This document shows positions 6,001-12,000 of a DNA stretch of 64,000 nt, piece after piece (the first letter of the stretch is position 1; every line of letters starts with the position of its first letter). The stretch lies in the NCBI RefSeq assembly GCF_044324875.1, contig NZ_CP172185.1, one strand, 5' to 3'. The stretch is from Escherichia coli. GTDB taxonomy: Bacteria > Pseudomonadota > Gammaproteobacteria > Enterobacterales > Enterobacteriaceae. Position numbers: made by a program.

Positions 6001-9000
6001 AAAATACGACTCGTGGCGAACGCCAGAGTATTCAGTTCTTTGATCATCAGGGCGATGCATTACTAAAAGTTTATGCCACCGACAATACCGATATGGCGGC
6101 ATGGAGTGAGCTTCTGGCACGGTTTATCGCCGATGAGAATACGCCGCTTGAGTTAAAAGCCGGTGATGCGCCAGTCGTTCAAATGCGAGCCGATGCCAGT
6201 GTGGTTGAGCAAGAGTGGCGGGCGATGACCGACGTTCATCAGTTTTTTACGTTGCTCAAGCGCCACAACCTGACGCGCCAACAGGCGTTCAATCTGGTGG
6301 CAGACGATTTGGCCTGCAAAGTATCCAACAGTGCGTTGGCGCAAATTCTTGAATCTGCACAGCAGGATGGCAATGAAATCATGGTGTTTGTTGGCAACCG
6401 TGGCTGCGTACAGATTTTCACTGGCGTGGTAGAAAAAGTGGTGCCAATGAAAGGTTGGCTGAATATTTTTAACCCGACGTTTACTCTTCATCTATTAGAA
6501 GAGAGCATTGCTGAAACCTGGGTAACCCGTAAGCCTGCTAGTGACGGTTATGTGACCAGTCTGGAATTGTTTGCCCATGATGGTACGCAGATAGCGCAAC
6601 TTTATGGTCAACGTACAGAAGGCGAACAGGAGCAAGCGCAATGGCGTAAGCAAGTTGCTTCGCTGATACCGGAAGTCGTTACTGCATAACGTATAATTAA
6701 CGGGAGGTCTGGCTATTTATTGCTGGGCCTCTTTATATTAATCAATCGATCACACCAGATAATCAATATGCTGATGGCGTACCAACTCATTGATCCGCTT
6801 AAGATTGAGGATCATCATGATATTGTGTTTATGGCAGTAGAACGTTTTTAGCGATATTTTCAGTTTCTCCAGAATATCTTCCGTTGTCATTTGATTCGCA
6901 ATGCAGCTCAGAACCTGATGCTGCTTGCGCGAAAGGGACACATCCGCTTCAGGCACAGAGCAGTAACTGCCATTGATGAGTGCGACAAAGTCGATGATGG
7001 TGATAGTTCGCGGAACAAAGGTCACCGGTACTTTCCCCAGGCAGCGTTTAATATTAAAGGGAGAGAAAATAATCACATGGACAGGTTTTAATCGTTCAAT
7101 TTGAGTGAGCAAATTAGAATGAAATACATTATTCATTAATGTATCAATAATGACGAAGGCATGCTGATGCAACATTACGTCGATCTCTTCTTCGTTCTGT
7201 ATATGAACGACATTACCTTTACTCAGAATGTTTTTCATCGCGGTGAAGAACATCGTATCCCTGGTAATTATAAGAAACATAACCGACTCCTGGTGCAGAC
7301 ATTAACTTTATAATCAGTTTGCCAAAGGTAATTAACAGGACAGGGCTTATAATAATAGTTAGCTTACTGTGTATTAATTTGATGTAATGCGTGATGCAGA
7401 TGCTGAGAAAGCATCTGCATCTTTCGGTGGTGTTATTTGACCAGCTCAGGTGTTACCTGACTCACCGCGTTGGTGTAGTAAGGCGCACCCCAGCCTGGTT
7501 CCGGCCAGAATGCACCATAGCCGTAATCCCACAGGTTATAGGTGGTATTAACCACTTCTCTCAAATGCCACACCTGGATGCCCTGCATATTCACTTCGAG
7601 GAAGTTATACGGGACTTTATTGATAAAGCCAGGTTGTTCACCCTGAATGGTACCGAGGATGGTAACAAAGTGATTACGATAGTTCACTGGATCAAGGAAG
7701 CCGCTTTGTCTGGCGAGCAGTCGGCCCTGATAGTTGGCTTCAATATCAGGCTTCGCATAGCTATCCAACGGTAATACAGCGATTTCTAACAACGTATCCG
7801 TTTTGCCATTGATAACGTTGATAACCTTCCCACCAAAGCGCGCTTGTTGACCAACATATAACCCCGGCTGGTTATGAACAGCAACAAAACTTTTTTGAAT
7901 ATCAGGTTGGTTATTGCCTTTGATATTTTGCGGAATTGAACTACATGCGGCAAGCAAAAATGAAAGGCTGAGGATGAGTGCACCTTTTGTCATGTTCATG
8001 TTACTATCCTTATCAACAAATATTAAAACCATAATAGATATTTCTTTATAGTTTTCATCTGATTCTGAGGCGATATGCCTGATAGTAACGTAAACCTGTC
8101 TGATGTTTATATCCCTTCTGTTTAGTTTAATTCTGTTAATTTTGGGGCGTGACATGAGTATCCATCGCCCCATAAAATAGCCTTTTTTTAAAGGTACATA
8201 AAATCTATTTTTATTCAATGATTATAAAGTGCTAATGTTCATATTATGGGATTATATTCTGGTAATGATTTGATAAGCGAATTTTTTTGCCAGTTGGTGT
8301 TTCTATTTCCACCCCATAATTTATAGTTTTTTCATCAGGTAGCGATCTCTTTAAATAAGGTGCGTATGACATTTTTTTTGGGTTAAGCGTCTCGTATTGA
8401 AATACTTCGAATTGATATTCAGACATTTCTGCCCATGTTTGAATTTTATTGTATCGGGAGAGTGTCGTAAAGGCTTTAACTTGCTTATAACATTGCTTTT
8501 GGAATTCTTTCTGATATTTTAATATGTCATTGTATGAAAGATTGGTTATCCTGGCCTCTAAGAATTTAATTATTGTCGAAGCAATTTCCGCTTTTGCTCG
8601 TAAAAAGTTGTCATTAATGGTTAATAATGTTGAAAATAAACCTTCGATTTGTTTGTCAAGATATTGTTCGTCTTTATATAATTTTGGGGTAGGGTGTTCT
8701 TTATGTGAAAAAATAGTGTCACCTAAATTTGCGTCAGTGAAATTTATATTAAGTAGATCTTCGAAATAAAACCTTGACAAGGTTAGAACGAACCCGGACA
8801 GGTTCTGTCCTGTCATATTGAAATCAATAAAGTTGGTTCCGGCAAAGACTTTCATCCTGTTTTTATTTTCACTGTGTTCAATATATAACTTCGTCATTTT
8901 TTGATACAGGCTTTGAATATCTTTTATATTAGTCGGTAAGTCAGCTCGTTGTTCAGCATTAAAATTAGTATCTGAAAACATGGTTTGGACACTGAATCTT

Positions 9001-12000
9001 ACTGGTATTCCCTCTTCTACGCTAATTTTAGTTATGATTGCCTTGTCGGGTTTAGGATTAGCGACAACAATGATTCGACATTCAGAATTTTTATTCTTTT
9101 CGTATCTAATGTTATTAATCTGATTAAGTATTGATTGTGTCTGTTGCGTAAGTGGTGTCGAACTTATCGTTTCAATGTTATTAATAAGACTTACAAGTTG
9201 AGCCACAATTTTTGAGTAGTCTGCATTTGTATATGTAGTGTTCGTGTGGCACGCATTAATTTGTTGGAGTTGTTGTTGCGCTAAATCAAATTGTTCAGCG
9301 TTATATCCTTCTTCAGACAATGAAAAATTAATGGGTTGCTGTTCTTCCTGATTATCACAAGGCCACATCGGTGTGTCTGGTGTTTTAACATTGTCGGTAT
9401 CTGTTGTGCGGTTATAAATATCGCCGTGATATGTATTTATCATACCTGGGGTAAAGTCAATTGACATAACATTCCTTATTGTTCATCTATTTCGCTAAAT
9501 TTTTGTAAATCGGAGAATTAGAGCAGGAATGGATTTTCTTCTACGCGGAAATAAACACAATGCGCCATATCTTCCTGATATAATTACCTTTAACTTCCCT
9601 TTCATTTCCACCCGGTAATATTTGTGTATAAAAAAAGGGCAGTGATAGTATCGTAAAGGAAAACGTTAACAACTATCAAAAAGCGCTCATTTTAAAAAGT
9701 TATGATGTTCTCCGATAGTGTGTGAAGTGATATTTTTGTGATGTTTTAGATGTGTAATAATGAACCAGGTTAAAGTGTATTTAAAAATGTGTTGTATTGG
9801 CGACTGAAATCTGCCCTTTAAAAGGGGGGATAGCACTGAGACAAAGAGGCATTGCTTCTCCGATAAAATGTCAGAGAAGCATGATTGCGTGGTGATTGTC
9901 GATTGATGACTTACTGACGGATCCGTCATCATTCTCAAAGCATTAGTTAAGTTATTTGTGCTTTTTAAGGATTATCCTATCTATGATTTTCTACTCAGAA
10001 GGATAAGGCACTCACAATGCTCCTTATAGTTTACTGCTGGCATCTATTTAAAATAGCATTTGAGTCAAATAGCCCATCAAGATAGCCATACCTAATATAA
10101 CCGTCAGGAATGCAGCTATCATCGGCATTCTGAACATTGATTTAAGTAATATCACTTCCGTCAGGCTTGCGCCGGCACTGCCGATGATTAATGCCATTAA
10201 TGCTCCCAGACCCATTCCTTTTGTCATCAGAACAGATGCCAGAGGGATAACCGCCTCTGCCCGGATATACAGCGGAATACCGACAACGGCGCTCAATGGG
10301 ATGGCGAAGGGATTATCTGCCCCTGCATGAGCGGCAATCCACTCTGAGGGAATAAAGCCATAAATAAAAGAGCCTATTAATACCCCTAACAAAAGATATG
10401 GCAGTACATCTTTAAACTGTTGCAACGCATCTTTGGTGGCTAGTTTTATGGGATTAATACTTACCACAGCTTTGGTACTGCAACAGTTTACTACAGGTTT
10501 CTCAATGGCTTTAGCCGCTGGACTACAGCAACTCACTTTTATTGGCGTATATGTCGTCCCCGGCGAAGTTTTGGCTGGAGCACAACAATTTGCTGATGAG
10601 CTTTTACTGGCAATGATATGACGTTCAAATCCCAGGGAATCCAGGATAATACTGGCAAGTACGGAGACGCCGGCGGCGATAATCGCGTACAACAAGGTAA
10701 CTTTCCAGCCAAAAGTCACCCACATTAACCCGACGATAATGGGATTAAGTAATGGGGAAACAAATAAAAAAGTGAGGGTCGGACCGAACCCGGCTTTCGC
10801 TGACAACAATCCACGTAACATGGGGATTGTCGAGCAACTACAGAACGGGGTAACGGCTCCCAACAGAGCCGCCAGGAGATAGCCTCTCCCTTTTCTGGCC
10901 CCCATCATCTGCTGGATTTTATGGTCTGGCACCTTTTGTCTTATCAGGCTGACACCGGCACTAATCACTATAAACAGCAAAGAAAGCTCGACGGCGAGAA
11001 ACACAAACATCTCTGCGGCATCTTGCAGCATCGCAAGCCAACTACTCATACGTAACCTCATTGAATAAATCTATATTTCCAGAATAATCGAAATAAAATT
11101 CAGATCAAGATATTTCTGGTATTATCGAAATATCAACCAGACAAAGGGGGTGTCATATGCAGTTGGAAGAAGTTGCTAAAGCGCTGAAAGAGCTAGGTCA
11201 CCCGACCCGTTTGTTCATATTCAAACACCTGGTCAAAGCGGGGGAACAAGGTTTGCCGGTCGGTGAGTTGCAAAAGCAGCTTGGGATACCCGGCTCTACA
11301 CTCAGTCACCATATTTCAGCACTGGTATCGGTAGGGCTGGTCAAACAAAACCGTGAGAGTCGGACGCTGATGTGTGTTTCGCAATACGCAATGCTGGAAG
11401 CGATAATTGAATTCTTACGCGAGGAGTGCTGCGTAAATAGCAAAATTGCCTGATGCGCTACGCGCTACAGATTTCATGCCATATATTGAATTTGCACGGT
11501 TTTGTAGGTCGGATAAGACGCGTTAGCGTCGCATCCGACATAAACGAAGCGCACTTTACCAACTATCGGCAGTGGATATCGCCGCTTTATTTCAGGCGTT
11601 TACCCGCTTCATCAACCACTTTCTCGCCATCTTCCTTGGTGAACGCGCGTTGTTGCGCATCTGGCAGAATTTCCAGCACCACTTCTGAAGGGCGGCACAG
11701 GCGAGTTCCCAGCGGCGTCACCACAATCGGGCGATTAATCAGAATCGGGTGCTGAAGCATAAAGTCGATTAGCCGATCGTCAGTAAATTTATCTTCTGCA
11801 AGGCCCAGTTCCTCATACGGCTCGACGTTTTTACGCAACAGCGCGCGTACGGAAATCCCCATATCGGCAATGAGTTTGACCAGCTCATCGCGCGTTGGCG
11901 GTGTTTCCAGATAATAGATAATGGTCGGTTCTGTACCGCTGTTGCGGATCATCTCCAGCGTATTACGCGACGTACCGCAGGCCGGGTTGTGATAAATGGT

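Follow-up and report, generated by a model that had tools for sequence, protein, structure and literature searches.

What kind of protein does the yhiS gene of Escherichia coli encode, and is it one that the species still uses? The gene is among the remaining genes of E. coli with no assigned function, and it has effectively never been studied because the K-12 copy (b3504/P37635) is broken by the insertion sequence IS5 (PMC8170033). An unbroken copy lies at positions 8244-9467 of the window, which is the whole 64,000-nucleotide stretch of E. coli DNA analyzed here (NCBI RefSeq assembly GCF_044324875.1, contig NZ_CP172185.1); the identity of this gene as yhiS and the presence of IS5 in the same gene of the K-12-type locus are confirmed (PMC11677980; PMC8170033). 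The reading favored here, to which a rough probability of 0.55 is given, is that yhiS encodes an accessory protein that would normally be silenced, of use under certain conditions and dispensable, its conserved core being a short interaction module of pentapeptide repeats with a helical bundle after it.

The window copy is one of the intact alleles. The six-frame list of open reading frames (ORFs) has a 407-codon frame on the minus strand with an ATG start and no internal stops, so that the frame is uninterrupted as the original prediction had stated, and an estimate from the composition of the gene gives a p of about 2e-14 for such a frame staying open by chance. The segment is a 100% DNA match to E. 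coli NRZ14408. The AT-richness relative to the neighboring genes, also part of the original prediction, holds with a guanine plus cytosine (GC) content of 0.31-0.37 over positions 8000-9999 compared with 0.45-0.56 in the flanks (about 0.50), and the gene itself has a GC content of 0.337, or 0.304 at third codon positions, placing its AT content well above average, as in a xenogeneic gene.

A recognizable part of the 407-residue protein is a tandem array of ten pentapeptide repeats. The center residues of the repeats at positions 208, 213, 218, 223, 228, 233, 238, 243, 248, and 253 are F, F, M, L, L, F, L, F, L, and F, respectively, and a run of ten L/F/M positions with a period of five is equalled in 0 of 20,000 shuffles of the YhiS protein. 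Six of the 10 repeats have an asparagine or aspartate directly before the center residue, in agreement with the A(D/N)LXX consensus (the block ANLGD is an example), and several of the inward-facing i-2 positions are occupied by K, Q, E, or F and not by small residues. The array carries a net charge of -1 and spans about 50-55 residues (13% of the protein), with the peptide quoted in the original prediction located at residues 208-250.

A profile built from nine YhiS variants matches the solved pentapeptide protein Rfr23 (PDB code 2f3l) with an E-value of 0.012 over residues 203-254 and lumenal TL15 with an E-value of 0.49. Searched against 1.84 billion representative proteins, the same profile retrieves YhiS, fragments of YhiS and 14 long proteins (E 1.6e-8 to 8e-4) and nothing else. 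Ten of the 14 long proteins were scanned with Pfam, and all ten give strong matches to the pentapeptide family PF00805 (E 1e-36 to 1e-80). A local hmmsearch of all 14 places the matched stretches within profile positions 178-328, nearly all at ~199-277, the sole exception being a stretch at 131-146 that scores -1.6 bits; the whole-library E-values add up many weak repeats, with the best single stretch reaching 26 bits. Directly C-terminal to the repeats, a linker in YhiS aligns with the sequence QLYSTxSYxDKxLxG that joins the ~72-residue modules of modular pentapeptide-repeat proteins. Because of the period-5 run, the profile matches and the linker alignment, residues 204-277 are taken, at the level of sequence, to be one diverged copy of a pentapeptide-repeat module. 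The pentapeptide-like segment of the original prediction is thus genuine, given the shuffling result and the matches to PF00805 proteins. Of the repeat fold that it proposed, a short module of about 2.5 predicted coils stands, whereas the protein as a whole is not a repeat-fold protein and falls below the Pfam threshold. Scans of YhiS with Pfam, NCBIfam, PADLOC, and PHROGs return no usable family assignment, and the absence of an assigned function claimed at the outset stands after the homology search. Weak matches to AIPR_N (E 0.34), an Mta methyltransferase (E 0.12), and phrog_3826 (E 0.066) were treated as noise. Four sequences considered as remote homologues (P0122, P0130, P0141, and P0156) were rejected, being frameshifted fragments of the same E. 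coli gene.

The predicted arrangement of YhiS from the N to the C terminus comprises a disordered region, an α+β domain, the pentapeptide module, with its ten repeats forming about 2.5 turns of a right-handed four-sided β-helix plus the linker, and a helical bundle (Table 1). Support from structure prediction for the β-helix, the check suggested in the original prediction, is moderate. In the best AlphaFold model β-bridges recur every five residues over residues 207-254 with a predicted local distance difference test (pLDDT) score of 61-77; this is seen in one of five models and only when the alignment is seeded with pentapeptide sequences (22 YhiS variants plus 31 in-register pentapeptide-repeat segments), and in none calculated with the family-only alignment. 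No transmembrane span is found in YhiS, the maximum 19-residue Kyte-Doolittle mean being 0.9, and the sequence describes a soluble protein of about 47 kDa that would carry neither signal peptide nor membrane span.

Table 1. Positions of yhiS, its parts and its surroundings in the window, with the corresponding residues of the 407-residue product
Feature	Position	Strand	Basis
Hyperdivergent AT-rich islet, yhiS and both noncoding flanks (~1.7 kb)	8150..9870	.	Sliding identity, whole-gene identity
yhiS coding sequence, intact, 407 amino acids	8244..9467	-	ORF listing, DNA match, dN/dS
A8 homopolymer, codons 366-368 (P-K-K-M)	8372..8379	-	Sequence; P0050 alignment; genome L014
Residues 267-361, predicted helical bundle	8385..8669	-	
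Residues 257-300, most constrained segment, with invariant stretch	8568..8699	-	dN/dS 0.09-0.13; invariant alignment columns
Linker after repeats, residues 257-277	8637..8699	-	HMMER domain alignments to P0153, P0162, P0173, P0176
Ten tandem pentapeptide repeats, about 2.5 coils, residues 204-256	8700..8858	-	
Site of two recurrent lesions in other strains: K-12 IS5 insertion (gene nucleotides 742-746) and 1-bp deletion near codon 253	8705..8726	-	
Residues 81-176, predicted helices then five-strand antiparallel sheet (α+β domain)	8940..9227	-	
Residues 1-55, polar N terminus rich in T, D, P, N; predicted disordered, weakly constrained	9303..9467	-	pLDDT 23-30 in both AlphaFold runs; dN/dS up to 0.76
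AT-rich upstream intergenic region, counterpart of K-12 arsC/yhiS "promoter island"	9468..10047	.	GC 0.33-0.40; PMC3661553 Table 1
Shine-Dalgarno-like AAGGA, 5 nucleotides 5' of ATG	9473..9477	-	Read from sequence

The alleles of yhiS fall into three classes. The representative of class I, to which the window belongs, is 96% identical in protein sequence to the window (P0013; 8,964 sequences in its 90%-identity cluster), and those of classes II (P0097; 2,855 sequences) and III (P0118; 63 sequences) are 77% and 63% identical, respectively. Mosaics between the classes are visible in the YhiS alignments. Nei-Gojobori estimates between classes give synonymous divergence (dS) of 0.30-0.61 for yhiS with a ratio of nonsynonymous to synonymous divergence (dN/dS) of 0.28-0.44, compared with dS 0.02-0.05 and dN/dS 0-0.14 for slp, and dS 0.01-0.13 and dN/dS 0-0.09 for dctR. 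The yhiS dN is significantly lower than dS between all allele classes (Fisher p 1e-7 to 5e-18), with the strongest constraint on residues 204-300 (dN/dS 0.09-0.29), and on these grounds yhiS has evolved as a real protein under moderate purifying selection. Positive selection was looked for by region, and no region of yhiS has dN/dS above 1.

The divergence between strains, which the original prediction missed, takes in the whole AT-rich islet, and in a neighborhood that is otherwise clonal few stretches diverge as much as this locus. A class III strain is 76.7% identical to the window in yhiS DNA but 98.9% identical in slp and 99.2% in dctR. Sliding identity to genome L008 drops from 0.99-1.00 in slp to 0.64-0.86 in the islet, with a sharp edge near 8150 on the slp side, and the divergent block extends to about 9870 with the noncoding flanks included. 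Expressed as divergence, the islet differs by 14-36% between E. coli strains that are ~99% identical in slp and dctR. The yhiS alleles thus appear, from their sequences, to be far older than the DNA that surrounds them. Balancing selection, introgression from an unsampled lineage, and a locally raised mutation rate are the candidate explanations. A more specific proposal, and one we hold to be rather improbable, is long-term balanced polymorphism, in which the three ancient classes, with dS up to 0.6 or about ten times that of the flanks, would be kept and recombined as YhiS meets a changing partner, the pentapeptide module acting as the binding surface. If this were true, the partner might be a protein of a phage or plasmid or, were YhiS a secreted effector, its target in the host, and repeated loss would mark lineages in which the interaction itself has been lost, for example with loss of the E. 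coli type III secretion system 2 (ETT2).

An intact reading frame is not the norm, a second point overlooked in the original prediction, as many E. coli carry frameshifts, deletions or insertion sequences in yhiS. Twenty genomes were sampled at even steps down the similarity ranking, a rank-spread and not a random sample, so that proportions are rough. Eight of the 20 have an intact frame, five share a common 1-bp deletion near codon 253, and three have a ~0.84-kb deletion with a frameshift; single genomes show a 371-amino acid form produced by slippage within the A8 tract of codons 366-368, a frameshift near codon 322, an IS5 insertion of the K-12 type, and loss of the whole gene next to IS1. 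The ~0.84-kb deletion type is present in about 1,055 of 5,426 genomes (about 19%). A one-base slip in A8 yields 371-amino acid variants ending in KKCHARLI, as seen in the alignment of P0050, and genome L014 has a frameshift near codon 365. Like A8, an A7 tract at 8283-8289 lies in the 3' part of yhiS, and slippage in A8 could be either ordinary or phase-variable switching. In genome L005 (strain OkiPb01713, positions 2960-2976) a T is inserted just past the normal start and an upstream ATG restores a 409-amino acid product beginning MLCQLTFTPG, which may represent a compensated frameshift.

Annotation obscures some of the intact copies. The allele identical to the window copy is labeled a "frameshifted" pseudogene by the RefSeq Prokaryotic Genome Annotation Pipeline (PGAP), with L001 positions 6352-7468 corresponding to window positions 8351-9467. 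Because the C terminus of the 407-amino acid form is conserved in all three allele classes, this label is apparently an artefact of comparison with a truncated 371-amino acid reference that is itself an A8-slip product. Intact copies of yhiS are therefore hidden, and possibly under-counted, in genome surveys based on annotation.

Of 5,426 complete E. coli genomes, 5,417 have the yhiS locus, in every case on the chromosome and at one and the same place. The allele of the window is rare, with only 4 of the 5,417 genomes having a copy at least 99% identical. About 135 homologous clusters were retrieved with two query alleles, and every named cluster is from E. coli or Shigella; clustering at 50% identity leaves a single full-length YhiS cluster among the 1.84 billion representatives, and the full-length 407-amino acid clusters hold >13,000 database sequences. 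No donor and no homologue outside E. coli and Shigella is found in the databases searched. Two scans of species-representative genomes with N-terminal and repeat-region patterns were negative but also missed E. coli itself, and they are not used as evidence of absence. YhiS is, as far as these searches reach, an orphan restricted to E. coli and Shigella for which no donor can be named. The horizontal acquisition put forward in the original prediction is consistent with the atypical composition and with this restriction, but acquisition as such is not shown, as the searches return neither donor nor outside homologue.

The possible silencing by H-NS suggested in the original prediction agrees with the H-NS binding published for K-12. 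The arsC/yhiS and insH11/slp intergenic regions of K-12 are among 78 "promoter islands", the arsC/yhiS island is H-NS-bound in all the studies by chromatin immunoprecipitation on microarrays that are compared there, and the gene associated with it counts as foreign in the predictions of both Nakamura et al. and Lawrence and Ochman (PMC3661553 Table 1). A 2026 preprint lists yhiS among high-affinity StpA sites (bioRxiv 10.64898/2026.02.10.705075). The link to acid and stationary-phase conditions, proposed because yhiS neighbors slp and dctR, is not supported, since yhiS does not respond to YdeO overexpression although it adjoins a YdeO site (PMC4222967). Deletion of the K-12 yhiS and its ASKA clone both leave the minimum inhibitory concentration of chlorhexidine unaffected (PMC8170033).

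In the favored reading these results would be combined as follows. According to the K-12 literature, yhiS belongs to an AT-rich islet that borders the acid fitness island and to which H-NS and StpA bind, and YdeO has no inducing effect on it. The gene would normally be silenced, useful under some conditions and otherwise dispensable, and this state would account for its loss in many lineages, where the lesions are of at least six independent kinds. The pentapeptide module would provide a rigid protein-binding surface and not a catalytic site. The three very old allele classes recombine into mosaics, and across them the coding sequence has been kept under moderate purifying selection.

Several results weigh against this account. 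Neither experiment nor homology assigns any activity to YhiS, and no report of expression of an intact yhiS allele, or of yhiS derepression in an hns mutant, was found in the literature searched; the H-NS data come from K-12, whose yhiS is interrupted, and not from the window strain. The Pfam Pentapeptide model (PF00805) gives 10.7 bits (E 0.42), which is below the gathering threshold of 20.2, and no individually significant stretch. AlphaFold with the nine-sequence family-only alignment is uninformative at a mean pLDDT of 35, the seeded run yields one model at a mean of 63 with the other four at 36-40, and Foldseek finds no significant match in the PDB. Finally, yhiS is broken in 12 of the 20 rank-spread genomes by at least six independent lesion types, and this is also compatible with a gene that currently has no function. 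This last observation leads to the most serious competing explanation, namely that yhiS is a relic, a once functional foreign gene now neutral and decaying, with the window copy simply not yet hit. The same lesion counts, the wide spread of the ~0.84-kb deletion, the H-NS silencing of the region in K-12 (PMC3661553), the lack of any phenotype report in K-12 (PMC8170033), and a yhiS dN/dS of 0.3-0.4 that is several times that of slp and dctR would all follow from decay. What makes this doubtful is that dN remains significantly below dS between all classes, that three lineages lying dS 0.3-0.6 apart have retained a 407-codon frame at 33% GC, that the frameshift after the start in L005 is rescued by an upstream ATG, and that so many database sequences fall in full-length 407-amino acid clusters.

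The remaining explanations assign YhiS a definite activity. That YhiS serves as substrate or effector for type III secretion (by ETT2 or the system of the locus of enterocyte effacement, LEE), in the manner of PipB2, EspX, and NleL and with the short β-helix binding a host protein, is suggested by analogy with EspX1 of O157 Sakai (ECs_0025), also an E. coli backbone gene, which has a GC content of 0.32 and whose pentapeptide region likewise stays below threshold (Pentapeptide_4 E 0.0027). The polar, disordered N terminus of YhiS has no Sec signal, its hyperdivergent, mosaic and often-lost alleles are typical of host-interaction genes, and NleL is among the weak and non-significant Foldseek matches. 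We nevertheless regard such a role as unlikely, because homology to EspX1 is undetectable (hhalign probability 0.5%, E 0.11, outside the repeat region), no NCBIfam effector family matches at E up to 10 (there is one weak unrelated match, E 0.12), no segment of the gene has dN/dS above 1, and the literature searched reports neither type III-dependent secretion or translocation of YhiS nor yhiS in an effector screen. More generally, yhiS is not known to have come up in effector screens. The deep, mosaic and often-lost alleles and the AT-rich, silenced setting would likewise suit a single-gene defense or anti-mobile-element factor under arms-race selection, and one distant pentapeptide-repeat match (P0165) joins its repeats to a HEPN domain; this is very improbable given that the locus is fixed in the core genome outside any defense island, that PADLOC gives no match and PHROGs only the weak one of no assigned function (E 0.066), and that neither nuclease, nucleoside triphosphatase nor other effector domains are detected by Pfam or NCBIfam. 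Least credible of all is the proposal that YhiS mimics DNA, as Qnr, MfpA, and AlbG do, and would thereby protect gyrase or another DNA-binding enzyme. The module itself and the appearance of MfpA structures among weak local Foldseek matches point in that direction. The Qnr and MfpA mimics are almost wholly β-helix, with about 8-10 coils, whereas YhiS has ten repeats in about 2.5 coils covering about 53 of its 407 residues, the charge of -1 on the module is not that of an acidic DNA-like surface, and no Qnr or MfpA family match is returned by NCBIfam or Pfam.

The surroundings of yhiS in the window differ on its two sides. On one side and on the same strand lie slp (7433-7999), dctR (6750-7280) and beyond them chuS, with the chu haem locus past dctR; on the other are an ArsP-type permease, an ArsR-type regulator and then arsC. 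The two genes between yhiS and arsC form a cassette of an ArsP_1-family permease at 10048-11061 on the minus strand (Pfam E 6e-53) and an ArsR/HTH_20 regulator at 11157-11453 on the plus strand. The cassette is present in genomes L005 and L007 and absent from the K-12-type, L006, L008, and L002 genomes, where arsC is directly next to the yhiS upstream region, and it constitutes a presence/absence polymorphism bordering the hyperdivergent islet. From arsC to gorA (window 11587-17042 against L008 1-5454) the window and class III strains are about 94% identical, compared with ~99% on the slp-dctR side, and the ars region may itself be a zone of recombination or replacement. An Rfam scan of 6500-12500 gives no RNA family above threshold. 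A match to naRNA4 at 11508-11540 on the minus strand, between arsC and the ArsR-like gene, stays below threshold (29.7 bits, the gathering score being 59.5; E 0.024) and may be a repeat of the repetitive extragenic palindromic (REP) type. In the yhiS upstream region of the window promoter-like hexamers are not enriched in a simple promoter scan (12 compared with 10.7 +/- 3.4 in shuffles), and the promoter and terminator scan of the locus finds no terminator-like site.

It was known before that the gene exists, that IS5 disrupts it in K-12, and that it is AT-rich and bound by H-NS. What is added here is that YhiS contains a diverged copy of a pentapeptide module, that the searches restrict its family to E. 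coli and Shigella, that its deep mosaic allele classes have been under moderate purifying selection, and that inactivating lesions are frequent and varied. Intact alleles exist, have evolved as a real protein and carry a recognizable interaction module, which provides both a reason and concrete alleles for a first functional test; if nothing follows from it, the locus would be another silenced, decaying orphan.

Compared with the K-12 locus, where yhiS is split by IS5, the window carries an intact copy of a rare allele and, unlike the K-12-type arrangement, has the ArsP-type permease and ArsR-type regulator between yhiS and arsC. The upstream region of yhiS is one of the 78 K-12 "promoter islands", H-NS-bound and flagged as foreign by two compositional methods (PMC3661553), although the gene is split by IS5 in those data and the hexamer count in the window does not exceed that of shuffles. 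YhiS resembles the EspX family and NleL of E. coli and PipB and PipB2 of Salmonella in gene style, all being products of AT-rich, lineage-restricted genes, 400-470 amino acids long and with a degenerate pentapeptide region, but it has no sequence homology to the EspX/NleL/PipB2 effectors (hhalign against EspX1). The kinesin-binding motif of PipB2 is LFNEF, and this motif is absent from the YhiS sequence. The closest likeness is to the pentapeptide-repeat proteins (PF00805/CL0505), such as Rfr23 of Cyanothece (PDB codes 2f3l and 2g0y). Unlike these proteins, YhiS has a single module, below the Pfam threshold, within 407 residues of otherwise unassigned domains. It shares with them ten repeats of A(D/N)LXX-like form, each centered on L, F, or M, and, with the modular members built of ~72-residue units, a common terminal linker, and outside its own family the YhiS profile retrieves pentapeptide-repeat proteins only.

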